From contig JAAYNP010000031.1 of NCBI GenBank assembly GCA_012520795.1, positions 30,771-94,770 of the forward strand: a stretch of 64,000 bases of DNA, read 5' to 3'. The notes under the pieces were generated by a model. That model saw only the letters and a list, made by a program, of their open reading frames with translations, had not been told where the DNA came from and searched no databases. The DNA is from Bacillota bacterium. GTDB lineage: Bacteria; Bacillota; Limnochordia; Darwinibacteriales; DTU012. The translations under genes were made by a program, and so were the position numbers. Every line of letters begins with the position of its first letter. The stretch's first letter is position 1. This document shows, piece by piece, positions 3,968 to 58,910 of the stretch.

Positions 3968-4750
3968 TCAGGACAAGAAAGGCATATATTTCAAGGTCAA
4001 ATACAGCAGTGGTAAGACAAACAACATTGAATCGAACCGGTCAAGAATGCCGCCATGGCCCGGTAAGATATTCCCAGAATCTTTGACAGCTCGTTCCCGC
4101 TTCATTGCTGATTCTACCAAATCTCCCGTTTGGCCGGCTATGGAAAGGCAAACGCCAAGCAGCAAGAGGACAACAGGCTGACGCCCCAGGTATACAGCAA
4201 AAGCAAGAGCTGTCAATCCTGCTGCCGCTACCCCGCCCAACGCCCCTTCCCATGTTTTGTGCGGGCTGATGGCCGGTGCCAGTTTTGTCTTTCCCAACGC
4301 CAGGCCGACAAAATACGCACCGGTGTCTGTGGCCCAGGTAACCCCGATGCCAAACAGTGCCCACCCAAACCCATAATCTGCGTGGACGATCCACAAAAAA
4401 CTGAACAAACCAACAATATAAAAAACTGCAGCCATGTGCCACATTTGACTTAACGGCCTATATGTCGTAAAGGTTGCCCTTGTCAGTAAATAGATCAATT
4501 GGAGCACAAACCAAACCCACAGGAAAGAGCCGTACAATCCATTATATGCCAGATACAACAAGGATAGCCCTGCCGGAATCAGGTAGTCCCAAAAGACTGG
4601 ATTTTCATAAAGCCTGCTGAATTCATACAAGCCTACAACGGCTAAAACCGCCAGTGCGACCTTGAGATAGATGCCTCCGAAGTAAATTACCGCCAAAAAC
4701 ACGGGAATAGTCACCACAGCTGTCCAAATCCTAGCAGTCAACCCCGTCAC
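3968..4750 (-). CDS. cdsA: phosphatidate cytidylyltransferase
   Basis: 260 aa membrane protein with C-terminal CdsA signature (...KTWEGALGG...DRFDS...). uppS-cdsA synteny. Confidence 0.85.
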   Translation of the reverse strand: MTGLTARIWTAVVTIPVFLAVIYFGGIYLKVALAVLAVVGLYEFSRLYENPVFWDYLIPAGLSLLYLAYNGLYGSFLWVWFVLQLIYLLTRATFTTYRPLSQMWHMAAVFYIVGLFSFLWIVHADYGFGWALFGIGVTWATDTGAYFVGLALGKTKLAPAISPHKTWEGALGGVAAAGLTALAFAVYLGRQPVVLLLLGVCLSIAGQTGDLVESAMKRERAVKDSGNILPGHGGILDRFDSMLFVLPLLYLTLKYMPFLS

Positions 4751-4757
4751 CTACCAG

Positions 4758-51822: not shown

Positions 51823-54800
51823 CTATTCCTCTGATAATTGCACCGATATTAATTGGGAAGTTGCATCGTCAGCCATGGTAACGCCATAAAGGCGATCCGC
51901 TACTTCCATCGTACCTGGGCGGTGTGTAATCACCAAAAATTGCGCAGCCTGAGCGAGAAACCGCATCTGTTCTGCAAACCGCCTTAAATTAACCTCGTCC
52001 AAGCTGGCGTCAATCTCATCAAGTACAACAAATGGAGTTGGCTTTACTTTTCTAATTGCCAATAATAGTGCTATAGCCGTCAAAGCCCTTTCTCCCCCGG
52101 ATAACAACAGGAGGTTTTGCGGCTTTTTCCCCGGTGGCTGTGCAATAATATCGACACCACTGTCCAGGATGCTGTCGGGATCCGTAAGTTCCAAATCGGC
52201 TTTACCGCCTTTGAACAGCTGTTTGAACATCAATTGAAACTCCTGCCGCAGTTTCTGGTAAGTTTCCAAGAGACGTTCGGCACTGGTAGCATCGATCTCA
52301 GCAATAGTCTGATGCAGTGTTTCTTTCGCTTGGATCAAGTCATCGTATTGAGTCTGTAAAAAGAACACCCTTTCCTTCACAGCCTCATAATCCTGAAGGG
52401 CTGCAAGATTGACTACGCCAAGCTCCCGAATGGAGTTCTTCAGGCGGATTTCCATCGCCTGCAGTTCTTCCAGGCTTGATCTCGGTTCCCGGGCAGCAAC
52501 ATCGCTCCGATCCAGTTGTCTTTCCAGCAATTCTTCATCTATACGCCTTAGCTCCAGTTCAATGCGGTCCAGCTCAAGGCGATGGTTGTAGATTTTTTTG
52601 TCAATGCGCCTAATACGCGACTGCAGGGACTTCAACTGCTGGTTATATTGTTTTGTCTTTTCCTGAAGCCCCAAACGGGCTTCCTTACAGGCAGCTATCT
52701 GCTCCATTAATCTTTGTTTTCCTTCTCGGAGCTTTACTTGCCGTTCCTGATATTCAGCCGCTTCGATACGCAGCCGGGACTGCTGCGATTGAAGTTCGGC
52801 AACAGCCTGGTCAATTTCAGCGATGGCATTCTGGTCCGTACGGACCTGCTCCGTCACGGCCCGTTTTTGGGCCTCAAGCTGCTTTACTTCAGCCGCCGCG
52901 CCAGTCAAGGCAACTTTTGAGTTGGTTAGTGCCGTCGATTCCTGCTCCAATTCTTGGTCAAGAATTGCAATGGCCTGCTCCAAACCGTGAATCTGTTCAC
53001 GTTTGCTGGCTTCTGCCTGCTCCATAGAGGCAATGCTGTCACTTGCAGCCGCAGCCTGTTGTTCCAGTTCCCTGATGGTGGCCAGATGATCCTCTACCTG
53101 CTTATGCCTGGCATCCAGAAGCTGGGTAAGGTGCTGATGTTCTGCTTGATGTTTTGCCAATTCTGATGCGGCGGCTTTGATCTCCAGCCTGATTTGATAA
53201 AGCCTTGCTTGGGTTTGCACCTGTTGATCCTTTGTTCGGGAAAGCTCCTCTTCCAGGCTGGCCTTCGCTTCAATGAGAATTTCAATTCGGCTGCGGAGTT
53301 CTTCCTGGTTCTGTTCCAGGCGGGCAATTTCATTCTTGCGGGCCAGCAATCCTGAAGACTTTTGGCTGATACTGCCTCCAGTCAGAGAACCGCTGGGCAT
53401 CACAACCTCTCCTGCCAGGGTGACTATCCGGTTGAAGCTTTTCAGCTTACGCTGCATGTTAAGTGCGGCATCCAAATCCTTCACTACCACAATTCTACCC
53501 AGCAGCGCTGACAGGGCAGGTGTGTATATTGGGTCGAATTGCACGAGATCCAATGCCGGGCCTATACAATCTTCATCTTGCCAAAATCGCTGATAATCCT
53601 TGGGAAACTGGCTTCCTTTGATATTGCTCAAAGGCAAAAAAGTACAGCGGCCAGCTTGGTGCCTTTTCAACCACTCAATCGCCAATTTCGCATCTTTTTC
53701 ATCTGGGGTGATCAGATACTGCAGCCCGGAGCCTAGGGCAACTTCAATCGCAGTTTCCAAACCTTGAGGGACGCAAATCACATCCGCAACTGTACCCAGG
53801 ATCCGGAAGTCTGCTTCGCCGGCCTGCATCAAACGCCGCACACTAGTACTATAACCTTCGTATTCCTTCTCCAACTCCCTTAATGCCTGGAGCCGGCTGA
53901 CAGTGCGTCCGAACTGGCCGGTATGTTCCTTCTCTTGACGGGCCACCTGTTCCAGTTCCTGCACAATCCTATCGTATTCCCTGTCCGATTCCAACAGCTG
54001 CTGTTCGGACTCCGACTCCTGCCGGCGCAAGGATTTCTGGTTTTTGACCAGTTCTGCATTCAGGCGGCGCTGCTCTTCCAATGCTTGTTCAAGCTGCTGA
54101 GCTTCCTCACTGATAAACTGAATCTGCTGCTTAAGCTGCTGCATCTGCTGCTGATAGCTGAGACCATAATTCCGGGCATCTGCCAACTCGCGGACAAACT
54201 CGATAAAAGCGCTTTTTTCCAGCTCGAGCTGCTGACGCTGCTGCTGCAAAGCTTCCCTTTTCCGGCTTAAGGTTTGCTCAGCATCGGATACACTTTCTTC
54301 CAGCTTATGGTATTGCTCATGTTTAAGACTTAATACATCGCCTAGTTCTTTCAGCTGGACTTCGAGGTTCCTGATCTGTTCGATGTGACTGTCTTTTGCC
54401 TTAAGGCGCAGTTCCTGGCTAAGCTGGTTGTGTGCCAATCGTTCTTCAATCAGCCCCGCTGCCTGCATTGCCTGGTTTATCTGCTCATTTAAACCAGCAA
54501 GCTCATCCTGGAGTAGTTCGATAGTGTATTCAAGCTGGGACAGCTGTTCCTGATCAGTCAAGGAAGCCTGTTCCACGCCTTGGTACTCAGCGGTCAACCG
54601 TTCAGCATCGTTCTCACATGTATGCAAAGCCTCGGCGTGTTGCTGCTGTTTGCGGCTTAACTCGCCGAGTTTAAGTGCGATTTTGTCGAGAACAACCCTC
54701 TCCAGTTCAGCAGAGAGGTTCTGATATTCTCTTGCTTTTTTGGCCTGAGTTTCCAAAGGCACCAACTGCTCTTTTAGTTCAGATAAAAGATCTGATACGC

Positions 54801-55368
54801 GTACCAAATCGAATTCTGTTTGAGCGATTTTTTTCTGGGCCTGTTCCTTGCGCTGGCGGTACTTGATGATGCCAGCGGTTTCCTCCAGAATGAAACGCCT
54901 GTCCAGTGGATTGATACTCAGAATTGCATCAACCTGGCCCTGCCCGATAATGGCATAGCCTTCCCGGCCCAAACCTGTGTCAGTAAACAAGTCTTGAATA
55001 TCACGCAAACGGCAGGGCTGGCGGTTGATCAGAAAATCACTTTCGCCTGAACGGTAAACCCGCCTGGTAATTGTGACTTCACTATAATCAACGGGAAGAA
55101 ACCCATCACTGTTATCCAAAGTTAGCTGCACTTCAGCCATGCCGAGAGGCTTCTTGCCATCGCTTCCCGCAAAAATCACGTCCTCCAGCTTGGCTCCCCG
55201 CAGGCTTTTGATACTCTGCTCGCCCAATACCCACCGGATGGCATCGTAAATGTTGCTTTTGCCTGCGCCATTCGGCCCGACAATGGCGGTGATCCCCTCG
55301 TCGAAATCCAGTACAACTTTATTTGCAAAAGACTTGAATCCAACCAGCTCCAACCGCTTGAGACGCAT
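51823..55368 (-). CDS. smc: chromosome segregation protein SMC
   Basis: 1181 aa; N-terminal Walker A GPNGAGKSNI, long coiled coils with a hinge, and the C-terminal LSGGE signature. Confidence 0.95.
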   Translation of the reverse strand: MRLKRLELVGFKSFANKVVLDFDEGITAIVGPNGAGKSNIYDAIRWVLGEQSIKSLRGAKLEDVIFAGSDGKKPLGMAEVQLTLDNSDGFLPVDYSEVTITRRVYRSGESDFLINRQPCRLRDIQDLFTDTGLGREGYAIIGQGQVDAILSINPLDRRFILEETAGIIKYRQRKEQAQKKIAQTEFDLVRVSDLLSELKEQLVPLETQAKKAREYQNLSAELERVVLDKIALKLGELSRKQQQHAEALHTCENDAERLTAEYQGVEQASLTDQEQLSQLEYTIELLQDELAGLNEQINQAMQAAGLIEERLAHNQLSQELRLKAKDSHIEQIRNLEVQLKELGDVLSLKHEQYHKLEESVSDAEQTLSRKREALQQQRQQLELEKSAFIEFVRELADARNYGLSYQQQMQQLKQQIQFISEEAQQLEQALEEQRRLNAELVKNQKSLRRQESESEQQLLESDREYDRIVQELEQVARQEKEHTGQFGRTVSRLQALRELEKEYEGYSTSVRRLMQAGEADFRILGTVADVICVPQGLETAIEVALGSGLQYLITPDEKDAKLAIEWLKRHQAGRCTFLPLSNIKGSQFPKDYQRFWQDEDCIGPALDLVQFDPIYTPALSALLGRIVVVKDLDAALNMQRKLKSFNRIVTLAGEVVMPSGSLTGGSISQKSSGLLARKNEIARLEQNQEELRSRIEILIEAKASLEEELSRTKDQQVQTQARLYQIRLEIKAAASELAKHQAEHQHLTQLLDARHKQVEDHLATIRELEQQAAAASDSIASMEQAEASKREQIHGLEQAIAILDQELEQESTALTNSKVALTGAAAEVKQLEAQKRAVTEQVRTDQNAIAEIDQAVAELQSQQSRLRIEAAEYQERQVKLREGKQRLMEQIAACKEARLGLQEKTKQYNQQLKSLQSRIRRIDKKIYNHRLELDRIELELRRIDEELLERQLDRSDVAAREPRSSLEELQAMEIRLKNSIRELGVVNLAALQDYEAVKERVFFLQTQYDDLIQAKETLHQTIAEIDATSAERLLETYQKLRQEFQLMFKQLFKGGKADLELTDPDSILDSGVDIIAQPPGKKPQNLLLLSGGERALTAIALLLAIRKVKPTPFVVLDEIDASLDEVNLRRFAEQMRFLAQAAQFLVITHRPGTMEVADRLYGVTMADDATSQLISVQLSEE

Positions 55369-55446
55369 GATAACCTCCAGTGAAGTAAATTGATCGCCTT
55401 AAATATTGTACCATAAACTGCTCAATATTTGATAAAAACTGGAGGA

Positions 55447-56151
55447 TTACCCCCCCAGTTTTAGATATAAATCCTTCCGCTTGCGGACCACCAACGGTAC
55501 CTGCGGGCTTAACAACGAACCGTATTCAGAAATCAACCTGCGCAGTTTAGTTTTTACCCTTGTACGGGCATTGTCGATCACTTTTGCCCCCACCCCGATC
55601 GTTTCCTCAATCTCACCGCTGGTATAACCACTCAAGAGCATCATAATCACAGAGTACTCCAACAGGGATAGATGATTGACCAGGAGCCGGTTAAGATACT
55701 GGGAGACGAATTTCTCTTCGATCATCCGTTCCGGATCGATCGTCGAATCTCCAGCGCTCACCAGATCAAGCACAATCCTGGAATCGTCTCCACCAAGCTG
55801 CGCCTGCAGCGACAGCGCCTCGTTCAGTGCCTTGTGTTTGTTGCCGTTGGTCTGTTTGATTACATTATAGATTTTGCGAATGATGCAAATGTAGGCAAAT
55901 GAACTGAACTTGACATCATACTGATCCGGTTTATACTCATCAATGGCACTCAGCAAGCCGATAACCCCTTCTTGAAGCAAGTCATCAAAGTCAAGGAAAC
56001 TGGCGTAGAAATTACGGACAATGTGCTTAACCATGGGTACATACTTGAGCACCAGTTTCTCTTTAGCATCCTGGTCACCTAAACGAATTCTGGCAATCAG
56101 GTTGAAATCTCTTTGCTGATTTAGATCGCCACGGCGTTGAGCCCTCTCCAT
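55447..56151 (-). CDS. sigma-70 family sigma factor, SigH-like subgroup
   Basis: Region 2 (DLLQEGVIGLLSAIDEYKPDQ...FSSFAYICIIRKI) and region 4 (LSGYTSGEIEETIGVGAKVIDNARTRVKTKL) align closely to B. subtilis SigH. I prefer the start at the second Met (MERAQRRGD), which is preceded by GGGGGAGGAG. Confidence 0.75.
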   Translation of the reverse strand: MERAQRRGDLNQQRDFNLIARIRLGDQDAKEKLVLKYVPMVKHIVRNFYASFLDFDDLLQEGVIGLLSAIDEYKPDQYDVKFSSFAYICIIRKIYNVIKQTNGNKHKALNEALSLQAQLGGDDSRIVLDLVSAGDSTIDPERMIEEKFVSQYLNRLLVNHLSLLEYSVIMMLLSGYTSGEIEETIGVGAKVIDNARTRVKTKLRRLISEYGSLLSPQVPLVVRKRKDLYLKLGG

Positions 56152-56399
56152 TGTTTCTCCTCCCCCGGCTGTTGATGGCATGTCTGTCAGCGTTTCAGTA
56201 TTATCTATATGAGGAGAAACTCCGTATATGCCTAATTTTGCTGTGCTGCTTGCACCAGTTTTCCATAATTCATGGAAATTTCGGTGGTGGCAGCCTTATC
56301 TGTACAAATATATCCATGTTTTATGTAAAGGTATTCCACCTTAAGATCATAATTTTACATTTAACATGGGCCGTGGCTCATAGATTGGTGGGGAATGCG

Positions 56400-56975
56400 T
56401 TGCAGCTCAATGAAACCCTTGCATATATGGCAGCACTTATCCGGGAAAATCCGAGCATCACAGTTCGGGAAATCGCCAATCATCTTAAGTTTGCCGATAA
56501 CAAATCGGTTTACTATTGGCTAAGTAAGGCAAACTACCAGGGCATTGGTGATTTTAAACAGGCGGTCTTGAAAGAACATGCCGACCGCCTTGACGGTTTG
56601 TCAGTACTGCAGAACGGGGTCACCAAGTTTCTGGTCAAAGTCCCGGTAAAGCCATGGAACCAAAAAAAGACAGATCCGGCACAAACCTGGGTTTACTTGT
56701 TTTATGAAGCCCCCAATCCGGAAGGGTTGTTTGCGGTTAATGTCGAAACCAACGAATTCAGCCCATGGTTTATCGAGGGGGACTTGATTGTTGTTAATTC
56801 CGCAATTGGCAAAGTTGGCTCCGGTTGGGTTTTGTTGAAAAAAGGCCGGGCATATCTGATTGGGCGGCGCTATGCCGGCAGCAGGCTTTTGCATGTCAAT
56901 ACTCTCAACCCCATCCCCCGCACCGGCCTTACAGAAATAGGAGAGATTGTCCAACTCTGGCGCATTTGGTCTTAG
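56400..56975 (+). CDS. hypothetical LexA-fold protein: N-terminal winged HTH + C-terminal S24-like beta domain apparently lacking Ser/Lys dyad
   Basis: It is divergent from the sigma gene. I prefer a TTG start after GGTGGGG, giving a product MQLNETLAYMAALIRENPSITVREIANHLKFADNKSVYYWLSKANYQG... The C-terminal part is LexA/S24-like in pattern. The track ORF upstream of about 56400 translates AT-rich promoter DNA. Confidence 0.45.
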   Translation: MQLNETLAYMAALIRENPSITVREIANHLKFADNKSVYYWLSKANYQGIGDFKQAVLKEHADRLDGLSVLQNGVTKFLVKVPVKPWNQKKTDPAQTWVYLFYEAPNPEGLFAVNVETNEFSPWFIEGDLIVVNSAIGKVGSGWVLLKKGRAYLIGRRYAGSRLLHVNTLNPIPRTGLTEIGEIVQLWRIWS

Positions 56976-57670
56976 GACTGAAAGTCAAGGTTGACCAAAG
57001 CTTCCCTGGCTGCATTTTGAGCAGCTTCTTTTTTTGTCCTCCCTGTACCCCTACCCAAGACTTTGTTTTTGAATACGACCTCGATCACGAATTCTTTGGC
57101 ATGATCCGGACCATGTTCGCGTGTCGTGTGATACGTTGGCAAATCCTGCCCGTACTGTTGCAAGCGTTCCTGCAGAGTGCTCTTGGCATCGATAATCGGC
57201 AGCTGCTCCTCCAAATCTTTCCCCTCCAACCATGACAGGTGCCTGAGGATTATGGGCCTTGCCGCATCCAGGCCAGAGTCAAGGTAAACCGCGCCGATCA
57301 CTGCCTCATAGACGTCACACAGAAGCGAATCCCTCTCAAACGCACGGGTGGCGGCTGCGCTTTTGGCAACTCGTAAATATTTGTCCAATCCAAGCGTACG
57401 GGCATGGGAAGCCAAGGTGGGCTGGCTGACCAAGAATGCCCTGATTTTTGCAAGCCTGCCTTCTTCAAAACCTAGATACTGATGATACAAATGATCACTG
57501 ACTATAATCTGCAGGACGGCATCCCCAAGAAACTCCAGCCGTTCGTTGTTCTTCTGCGGCTCTCCCGGACAAAGTGATTTGTGGGTTAATGCCAGCTTCA
57601 GCAGAGTCCGGTCCTTAAACCGGTAGTCCAGGTTATTCTCGAGTTCGGATAAGGAATACTCCTTATTCAT
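56972..57670 (-). CDS. rnc: ribonuclease III
   Basis: ERLEFLGDAVL catalytic signature and a C-terminal dsRBD. I prefer the start at MNKEYSLSELE. Confidence 0.9.
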   Translation of the reverse strand: MNKEYSLSELENNLDYRFKDRTLLKLALTHKSLCPGEPQKNNERLEFLGDAVLQIIVSDHLYHQYLGFEEGRLAKIRAFLVSQPTLASHARTLGLDKYLRVAKSAAATRAFERDSLLCDVYEAVIGAVYLDSGLDAARPIILRHLSWLEGKDLEEQLPIIDAKSTLQERLQQYGQDLPTYHTTREHGPDHAKEFVIEVVFKNKVLGRGTGRTKKEAAQNAAREALVNLDFQS

Positions 57671-58910
57671 TGGAACTACCCCACCGCCGCATTGCCAGTA
57701 CCGCATTATGGCCGCCAAAACCAAATGAGTTGTTTATTGCCACTTCCAGATCAACCTTGCGCGCTTGATTGGGAACATAATCAAGATCGCAATCTGGATC
57801 AGGGTATTCATAATTATAAGTACCGGGAATGGTTTGATGTTTCAGGGCGAGGGCACAGATTCCTGCTTCCAACGCTCCTGACGCCCCCAGGAGATGCCCT
57901 GTCAACGATTTTGTACTGCTGACCGGAATTTGATACGCCCGCTCACCAAAAACCTTCTTGATTGCCAAGGTTTCATAGTAGTCGTTGTACCTGGTGCCGG
58001 TACCATGGGCGTTGATATAACCCACATCATTGACAGTGATTCGTGCATCCGCCAAGGCTTCCTTGATTGCCCGCTGAGCCCCTTCATGTTCCGGTGCAGG
58101 CGAAGTGATGTGATAAGCATCGCCGCTGACGCCATAGCCAATTATTTCGCAGTAGATGTCTGCACTGCGGGCCTGAGCATTGCCCAATTCTTCCAGCACT
58201 AATACACAGGCCCCTTCGCCCATTACAAAGCCGTCCCTCTGCTGATCAAACGGTCGGCTGGCCCGCTCAGGTTCATCATTGCGGGCCGACAAAGCCCTAG
58301 CGGCAATGAATCCAGCCATGGACAAAGGGGTGACTCCTGCTTCCGCTCCTCCAGCCAGCATTGCATCAGCATTACCGCGGGCGATTATTCTATAGGCATC
58401 ACCAATGGAATGGGTCCCTGAGGCACAGGCAGTAACTGTACAAGAATTCGGGCCTTTGGCTCCAGTGATTATTGCCGTCTGCCCGCTGGCCATATCGGGA
58501 ATCAACATGGGTACCAGAAAAGGGCTCACTTTGCCTACGCCTTTCTCCCTTAGAACCTGTGCCTGCTTTTCAATAGTGCTTACGCCGCCGATCCCTGAAC
58601 CAATCAACACACCTATGCGAGGCGCATTTGCCCCTGTGATCTTTAGTCTGGCATCACTCAAGCTCTGTACGGCTGCAGCAACCGCATATTGACAGAACAG
58701 GTCCATCCGCCTGATTTCTTTCGGCTCAAGATACTCGGCAGGGTCAAAATCCTTTACCTCGGCAGCAATCTGGACTGGGTAATCGGACGCATCAAAACGC
58801 GTTACCCTCCCGACACCACTGACACCTTTAAGCAGATTCTCCCATAGTTGATCTTTTTTCCCCAAAGGAGAGATGACGCCTATTCCCGTCACAACGACTC
58901 TCCGTTCCAT
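57663..58910 (-). CDS. fabF: 3-oxoacyl-ACP synthase II
   Basis: 415 aa KAS II with active-site Cys region (...TACASGTHSIG...) and the His-His motifs. Confidence 0.95.
   Translation of the reverse strand: MERRVVVTGIGVISPLGKKDQLWENLLKGVSGVGRVTRFDASDYPVQIAAEVKDFDPAEYLEPKEIRRMDLFCQYAVAAAVQSLSDARLKITGANAPRIGVLIGSGIGGVSTIEKQAQVLREKGVGKVSPFLVPMLIPDMASGQTAIITGAKGPNSCTVTACASGTHSIGDAYRIIARGNADAMLAGGAEAGVTPLSMAGFIAARALSARNDEPERASRPFDQQRDGFVMGEGACVLVLEELGNAQARSADIYCEIIGYGVSGDAYHITSPAPEHEGAQRAIKEALADARITVNDVGYINAHGTGTRYNDYYETLAIKKVFGERAYQIPVSSTKSLTGHLLGASGALEAGICALALKHQTIPGTYNYEYPDPDCDLDYVPNQARKVDLEVAINNSFGFGGHNAVLAMRRWGSSNE

Follow-up and report, generated by a model that had tools for sequence, protein, structure and literature searches.

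In a 64 kb stretch of a Bacillota genome (class Limnochordia, order Darwinibacteriales; contig JAAYNP010000031.1), hereafter called the window, two divergently oriented genes separate the housekeeping genes smc and rnc. The minus-strand gene is predicted to encode a sigma factor of the SigH family, and the plus-strand gene a regulator that joins an N-terminal helix-turn-helix (HTH) to a C-terminal domain of the LexA/CI (S24) fold. Comparative sequence analysis indicates that the two genes form a conserved, lineage-wide regulatory module and not a recent or variable insertion. The order smc-sigma-HTH-rnc, in which the HTH gene alone points in the opposite direction, was found in 32 of 37 species-level loci and in all 11 sigma-bearing metagenome loci, that is, in 43 of 43 sigma-bearing relatives.

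Conservation and gene neighbourhood of the pair

The species-level loci were obtained from a scan of species-representative genomes. All 37 belong to uncultured Bacillota, labelled, for example, Limnochordia bacterium, Ca. Darwinibacter acetoxidans, Ca. Fermentithermobacillaceae, "Peptococcaceae bacterium 1109" or Symbiobacterium sp. The 11 metagenome loci (L001-L007 and L045-L048) were reached via P0005, P0035, P0036, P0118 and P0159, and related loci were read to +/-10 kb. Among the syntenic loci, the sigma factor was better conserved (61-86% identity) than the products of rnc (47-77%) and smc (35-72%, from partial alignments) or than the HTH protein (38-78%). Neither in the window nor in the inspected loci did phage, integrase or other mobile-element genes flank the pair, and this absence, together with a mild dip in GC content, agrees with an old vertical neighbourhood.

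A preliminary description of this DNA had taken the two genes for an accessory insertion. Its premise, that smc and rnc normally lie close together, is sound: rnc and smc are adjacent in B. subtilis and normally so in Bacillota, and the window order from fapR to the fla operon is that of B. subtilis. The conclusion drawn from this premise cannot be kept, given the order shared by every sigma-bearing relative and a sigma factor that is more conserved than the products of smc and rnc. The same description would have called the locus ordinary if relatives universally carried the pair and if the plus-strand protein were a canonical LexA or a member of a described family. The first is the case; the second is not.

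In other lineages the divergent neighbour of the HTH gene varies, while the HTH gene itself stays beside rnc. Distant lineages have it between smc (or ftsY) and rnc alone, with no divergent neighbour (L041-L043 and L054), with spoVS (the Symbiobacterium-like L039/L040, and L049), or with a sigma gene and spoVS in the order sigma-spoVS-HTH-rnc (L050, L052 and L053, from three other lineages); in L051 the context is unrelated. Here spoVS stands between the sigma gene (or smc/ftsY) and the HTH gene and is divergent from the latter (L039 3539-3952, L049 5441-5701, L050 1095-1355, L052 3707-3985 and L053 4574-4834). In L052, a minus-strand open reading frame (ORF) of 224 aa without Pfam match (4079-4753) lies in addition between spoVS and the HTH gene. 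The sigma factors beside spoVS carry the same C-terminal tail as that of the window (see below), and tail-bearing sigmas fall to 42-58% identity at distances at which rnc reaches about 39%. The HTH gene is older at the smc-rnc site than its pairing with the sigma gene, and the locus goes back to an old, vertically inherited neighbourhood of sigma, spoVS and HTH genes that was reduced in Limnochordia to sigma and HTH.

The sigma factor and the S24-fold regulator

Profile searches bore out the reading of the minus-strand product as a sigma-70 protein like SigH. The Pfam model Sigma70_r2 matched with an E-value of 1.2e-13 (51 bits; the cut-off is 24), and the top five NCBIfam matches were all SigH-group models, three of them named SigH, at full length and with E-values of 1e-29 to 1e-34. 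For region 4 there was no Pfam r4 match. This region is nonetheless covered by the SigH-model alignment (profile positions 11-212 of 218), and within it IDNARTRVKTKL aligns with IDNALQRVKRKL of B. subtilis SigH. Over 202 aa, the protein is 35% identical to B. subtilis SigH; the motifs quoted in the preliminary description align to it, and the segments QEG.IGL, F..FA..CI.R, KH..LN and IDNA..RVK.KL are common to both. The nearest solved relative is 3mzy, annotated "sigma-H factor". In the AlphaFold (AF2) model we observed ordinary sigma-2 and sigma-4 domains, with helices at residues 140-210. PHROG sigma-factor families were matched as well, and database names are generic in PGAP and "sporulation-specific sigma factor" in IMG.

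Likeness to SigH (Spo0H) of Bacillus and Clostridioides thus comprises the best full-length family match and the SigH-type segments, and in addition the SigH-type -35 (TAAAGGWWTT), xAAT -10 and SigH spacing of the adjoining HTH promoter and the linkage of this sigma family to spoVS, a gene of the SigH regulon. Several features set the window protein apart. SigH of B. subtilis and of C. difficile are 63% identical to each other (PMC7438776 Table 1), against 35% for the window sigma and B. subtilis SigH. It stays below every SigH equivalog cut-off (118.4 versus 208 bits for NF006148 and 113.7 versus 294.8 bits for TIGR02859), as do three other members of its family (118-121 bits versus 208-295, four lineages in all). 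Its gene is divergently paired with a regulator and lies between smc and rnc; the canonical position of sigH is upstream of rpmG-secE-nusG. Finally, the protein ends in a tail of about 25 aa, EYGSLLSPxVPxxVR(K/R)R(E/K)DLYL, which is near-invariant across the family, even between members that are 42-58% identical overall, and has no counterpart in B. subtilis SigH. In the AlphaFold model, the first ten residues of this tail have a pLDDT of about 85 and the remainder is poorly modelled.

The divergent HTH protein of the window had no family match in Pfam, NCBIfam or PHROGs. A word-indexed search yielded 41 relatives, all named "hypothetical", and an exhaustive profile search 123 clusters at 50% identity, mostly of 180-210 aa; most family members are "hypothetical", and a few distant ones are labelled S24 family peptidase or LexA. 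In the AlphaFold model (pLDDT 86.8), four N-terminal helices (residues 1-62) are followed by a beta domain (residues ~66-191) of LexA/CI fold. The family profile matched lambda cI (E 3e-6), LexA (4e-4) and UmuD (4e-3), distant members exceeded the Pfam Peptidase_S24 threshold, and one distant member matched PHROG 4, "transcriptional repressor". That is, the C-terminal domain has the S24 beta-fold that the preliminary description had read from its pattern.

The further claim that the catalytic Ser and Lys are substituted (TNEF and GRRY) extends to the whole family. In a hidden Markov model alignment, Ser149 of cI (GNSM) aligns with Glu (TNEF) in the window protein and with E, N, D, T or Q elsewhere, and Lys192 of cI aligns with Arg (GRRY in the window, RRxY in the family consensus). 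Among 36 close and 24 distant members, neither Ser nor Lys is invariant at any position of the C-terminal domain. The linker (residues ~58-75) varies in length and sequence and contains no conserved Ala-Gly (or Cys-Gly) cleavage site. These results confirm a LexA/CI fold with the dyad lost family-wide. Since the dyad is lost, RecA-stimulated autoproteolysis should be unable to inactivate the regulator, and any signal input would have to come otherwise.

For the N-terminal domain, the preliminary description had proposed a LexA-like winged HTH, and this proved mistaken: the four helices lack a wing, and LexA_DNA_bind (PF01726) gave no match in the window protein. The domain carries a motif that is near-invariant in the whole family, PSITVREIA..L.(F/Y)(A/S)(D/E).KS(V/I)YYWL.K...GI..F(K/R)..VL. 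It is neither the winged helix of LexA nor the Xre-type HTH of CI/Cro. Other differences from lambda CI and LexA are the E/N/D and R in place of Ser and Lys and the missing Ala-Gly, with which RecA-type induction is not expected, and a chromosomal, core location of the gene behind a sigmaH-type promoter with no SOS box. The resemblance to CI/LexA lies in the several palindromic sites of the divergent promoter region, with integral helical-turn spacing, and for CI in a promoter-proximal site that is centred near -41/-42 and abuts the -35 box, as OR2 does at PRM. Another relative by fold is SipA of S. pyogenes (rank 8 among the matches of the HTH protein), an inactive S24/S26 fold kept without the nucleophile/base dyad. 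SipA shows that this fold can be reused for non-proteolytic roles; in contrast to the window protein, it lacks a DNA-binding domain and serves pilus assembly.

The divergent control region

The spacer between the two genes is about 42% GC (versus about 50% in the flanks) and holds four inverted-repeat pairs, in line with the AT-rich spacer of some 250 bp with inverted repeats noted earlier. An alignment of 37 spacers revealed fixed blocks within otherwise randomised sequence. Upstream of the HTH gene, the spacers follow the pattern GTAAAGGT(T/A)TT-N14-(G/T)AAT, in which 14 nt are followed by TGAAT or GGAAT, or by TAAT(T) in the window's subclade. Of 54 loci, 53 have the motif GTAAAGG ahead of the HTH gene, among them the loci that lack a sigma gene (the exception is L053, where the called start is apparently wrong); elsewhere in 453 kb the motif is almost absent. 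From AGG to xAAT the offset is fixed at 22 in the HTH promoters. The same offset, 22-23 nt from AGG to GAAT, is seen in SigH promoters of C. difficile, for example those of spoVS (AATAAAGGTTTT... and AATAAAGGTTTTCTTAAAACGATTATAGAAG), CD0572 (GATAAAGGTATTT...AGAAT and GATAAAGGTATTTGGAAAAGTATGAAGAAT) and frr (AATAAAGGTATTT...AGAAT; PMC7438776 Table 3).

The gene spoVS itself is SigH-dependent in C. difficile (PMC7438776) and in B. thuringiensis (PMC8510167). In L039, L049 and L050, where it adjoins the HTH gene, it has canonical AGGAATTTT-N12-GAAT promoters, such as GGAGGAATTTTCAGGGAAGTGACGAATAA. On this comparative evidence we class the putative HTH promoter as SigH type. Transcription is predicted to start near 56361, about 7 nt past 56354. 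The start codon follows the promoter by 35-60 nt in most loci and by up to ~125 nt in L030-L032 and L038. Within the window, no further copies of the promoter boxes or of the operator-like motif were found beyond chance.

Two 13-bp copies of this motif, CCATRNNTTATGK, lie 50-53 bp apart in 36 of 37 spacers, and the sequence between them is not conserved. The proximal copy ends in the GT of GTAAAGG. The pattern CCAT[AG]NNN[TC]ATG[GT] has 92 matches in 549 kb, 90 of which fall in the spacers and two elsewhere. Spo0A boxes, Firmicute LexA boxes (GAAC-N4-GTTC) and AbrB TGGNA repeats were absent from the 37 spacers.

The most conserved non-coding element of the locus lies on the sigma side. The block GCATATAYATGGACTAG-N4/5-GCCTGGAC, located 25-60 nt before the sigma start, is essentially invariant in 19 of 20 species (L026 differs in its downstream half), with neighbouring proteins only 40-70% identical. 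We found it in L006, L014-L038 and L044, and the window has a counterpart at ~56180-56215. AGGMAT precedes the block at the same 22-nt offset. The block is a candidate promoter, leader (5' untranslated region) element or binding site. If AGGAAT...GCATATA upstream of the sigma gene is read as the sigma promoter, its AGG-to-xxAT offset equals that of the HTH promoter.

In the sigma leader of the window, GUUUCUCCUC is perfectly complementary to the ribosome-binding site (RBS) GAGGAGAAAC. Relatives of the L001 type have CUUUUCCUUC and GGAGGAAAAG instead, which amounts to four compensatory changes, and most loci have a favourable energy for the anti-RBS duplex. With RNAalifold, 20 sequences of the larger clade gave no consensus helix, and the window leader reached a z-score of only -1.06. 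We therefore treat the RBS-sequestering helix as a lead for translational control, in the window's subclade only. If the helix is real, the sigma start site must lie farther upstream than the AGGAAT...GCATATA reading allows.

Table 1. Features of the smc-rnc interval and its borders in the window (positions count from the first base of the window).
Feature	Position	Strand	Basis
smc	51823-55368	-	window ORFs
Terminator-like hairpin with T-run over the sigma stop codon, before smc	55441-55455	-	consensus scan only
SigH-family sigma gene (predicted), 234 aa	55447-56151	-	ORF and Pfam/NCBIfam; 100% identical to P0042; 61-86% identical in 43 syntenic loci
Coding region of the sigma C-terminal extension, residues 209-234, EYGSLLSPQVPLVVRKRKDLYLKLGG, beyond region 4.2	55450-55527	-	family comparison
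Divergent control region, 248 bp, with blocks conserved between species	56152-56399		37-spacer alignment, composition, inverted repeats
Sigma leader: GUUUCUCCUC (56211-56220) complementary to RBS GAGGAGAAAC (56153-56162), 48 nt apart	56153-56220	-	inverted repeat
Sigma-proximal conserved block CATATAGATAAT (counterpart of GCATATAYATGGACTAG in the other clade) with upstream TTAGGCATATA (AGG..AT box)	56197-56235	-	candidate sigma promoter or leader element
Distal operator-like palindrome CCATAATTCATGG, motif CCATRNNTTATGK	56263-56275		motif scan, near-perfect palindrome
Proximal operator-like motif CCATGTTTTATGT, abutting the -35 box	56314-56326	+	centre ~-41 from the predicted start
Putative sigmaH-type HTH promoter: -35 GTAAAGGTATT (56325-56335), 14-nt spacer, -10 TAATT (56350-56354)	56325-56354	+	comparative sequence
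Gene of the HTH/S24-fold pseudo-peptidase regulator, 191 aa	56400-56975	+	homology and structure model
Overlapping stop codons of the convergent HTH and rnc genes	56972-56975		gene calls
rnc	56972-57724	-	window ORFs
Terminator-like hairpin with T-run for the HTH transcript, antisense inside the rnc 3' end	57008-57036	+	consensus scan only

The pair is embedded among housekeeping genes that lie on the minus strand: ffh, ylxM, ftsY and smc on one side, and rnc, fabF, acpP, fabG, fabD, fabH, plsX and fapR on the other. The HTH gene had been called the only plus-strand gene of its stretch, which holds from 40614 to the window end. The sigma ORF extends to 56181; we prefer the start at ATG 56151, which follows the RBS GGGGGAGGAG. 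The TTG start of the HTH gene is supported by homology (homologues start MQLNETLAYMAAL) and by a conserved GGTGGG RBS upstream. The listed rnc ORF, with its TTG start at 57724, overlaps fabF by 62 nt (57663-57724). Since rnc homologues are 227-228 aa long, the true start is probably ATG 57670 (MNKEYSL...). Rfam and tRNA scans of the window gave no matches.

At the other end of rnc, the convergent HTH and rnc genes meet at their stop codons, with an overlap of 4-10 nt in each of the five Limnochordia loci for which genes were called (L001, L004, L006, L045 and L047). For the HTH transcript, the sole terminator-like hairpin is found within the coding sequence of rnc, so that the HTH and rnc mRNAs must overlap as antisense RNA. 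This overlap would offer a natural substrate to RNase III, which rnc itself encodes. At 56671-56694, within the HTH reading frame, a bidirectional hairpin has T-runs on either strand and could stop antisense read-through from rnc. Since the peptide segment encoded there varies, this hairpin is probably not conserved.

Proposed model, alternatives and significance

Beside the observed gene identities, fold, dyad loss, synteny and conservation and geometry of the motifs, we set a model of how the pair may act; what it adds by inference is the sigma factor that reads the promoter, the binding of the motifs by the HTH protein, the direction of regulation and the physiological role. The sigma factor would have kept the SigH-type DNA-reading regions (FSSFAYICI.R, KH..LN and IDNA.TRVK.KL) and gained the invariant C-terminal tail. 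RNA polymerase with the adjacent sigma, or with a SigH of the same specificity, would start HTH transcription at TAAAGGTWTT-N14-xAAT. The adjacent sigma is the most economical reader of this promoter, because its -35-reading helix is SigH-like. The HTH product would be a regulator that binds DNA as a dimer, with the architecture of lambda CI or LexA and with dimer contacts made by its S24-fold domain. Its targets would be the two CCATRNNTTATGK operators near -41 and -92 of the HTH promoter, which are separated by five helical turns and lie on one side of the helix. The proximal operator would meet the -35 box where CI at OR2 contacts region 4 of sigma, and the regulator might control its own gene in the manner of CI at PRM, with either sign. 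Possibly it also acts on the palindromic block before the sigma gene, which would close a feedback loop. The spoVS linkage and the SigH-type promoters would assign the module to the entry into stationary phase or the initiation of sporulation. Taken as a whole, we consider the chances of this model being right or wrong to be about even.

Several observations weigh against parts of it. In the window's subclade, the -10 of the HTH promoter reads TAAT or TAAA instead of GAAT. The operator pair is confined to Limnochordia and, in part, to the Symbiobacterium-like loci, and was not seen in L049-L054; another transcription factor could bind the CCAT..ATGG motifs. On the sigma side, the spacer of the operator-like palindrome is a base shorter than that of either operator, so that control of sigma by the HTH protein has weak support. 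Since several lineages have the HTH gene without an adjacent sigma gene, the two proteins need not be obligate partners. The proposed link to sporulation is drawn from gene neighbourhood.

The alternative that survives best is that the sigma factor is the lineage's ordinary SigH (Spo0H) orthologue, relocated from rpmG-secE-nusG, and that the HTH gene is an incidental neighbour from the SigH regulon with no dedicated pairing. It agrees with the module model on promoter use and differs on the specific feedback pairing. The SigH-group identity of all five top NCBIfam matches fits such an orthologue, as does a sigmaH-type HTH promoter that is kept in lineages without an adjacent sigma. Moreover, measured against the 42-58% identity that tail-bearing sigmas share where rnc shares about 39%, a value of 35% to B. 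subtilis SigH is not far below. However, an ordinary orthologue sits badly with scores of 118-121 bits under cut-offs of 208-295 in four lineages, given the identity of the B. subtilis and C. difficile proteins, and with an invariant tail that canonical SigH does not have. The divergent arrangement and the fixed operator geometry in every Limnochordia locus argue for functional coupling. We regard relocation of an ordinary SigH as possible, though rather unlikely.

More doubtful is a role of the HTH/S24 protein as an anti-sigma factor or co-factor whose former peptidase cleft docks the sigma tail, instead of or beside DNA binding. The tail, an invariant extension past region 4.2 that only this sigma family has, would suit a docking partner, and the two genes are tightly linked in five lineages. 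Yet anti-sigma genes are usually co-transcribed with their sigma gene, and these genes are divergent; the HTH protein also occurs in lineages without an adjacent sigma, and its invariant part is the HTH domain, not the cleft. We think this improbable. An extended scheme seems to us equally improbable: the sigma would be a tail-bearing second SigH paralogue whose tail is captured by the former S24 cleft, the HTH protein would be both a CI-like repressor and a sigma-docking partner, and in Limnochordia the two would form a bistable switch for sporulation or stationary phase. The idea that the pair is a prophage or mobile-element remnant, that is, a CI-type repressor and a phage-type sigma left between smc and rnc, could draw on the CI-like fold, the PHROG matches of the sigma and of one distant regulator (PHROG 4) and the slightly lower GC, but was rejected on synteny and is most improbable, since dozens of species from several classes share the same core-genome location and their divergence looks vertical, flanking phage or integrase genes are missing, the window HTH protein has no PHROG match and the sigma is more conserved than its housekeeping neighbours.

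What is known of how the initiation of sporulation is controlled comes almost wholly from Bacillus and Clostridioides. Limnochordia-type organisms branch deeply within Bacillota and are mostly known as metagenome-assembled genomes from anaerobic digesters; they and related groups, among them the MBA03/Darwinibacteriales organisms that abound in biogas reactors (PMC12663870), are uncultured and unstudied in their regulation. Both proteins of the pair belong to known superfamilies and, by our comparison, neither subfamily is a described one; our literature search found no paper dealing with either protein family. The locus contributes a SigH-type sigma that occurs throughout the lineage and bears a new, invariant tail, together with a family of uncharacterised LexA/CI-fold regulators that are predicted to be non-cleavable and have no Pfam or NCBIfam model of their own. 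In addition, its control region is compact, with promoter and operators readable from comparative sequence. The model makes concrete predictions, namely a transcription start near 56361, a footprint on the two 13-bp sites and no self-cleavage of the regulator. Should the sigma turn out to be a second SigH paralogue, or its tail to dock into the pseudo-peptidase, the significance of the locus would rise. Results on these points would justify giving the HTH domain a new family model and deciding if the sigma factors of these lineages are to be named SigH.

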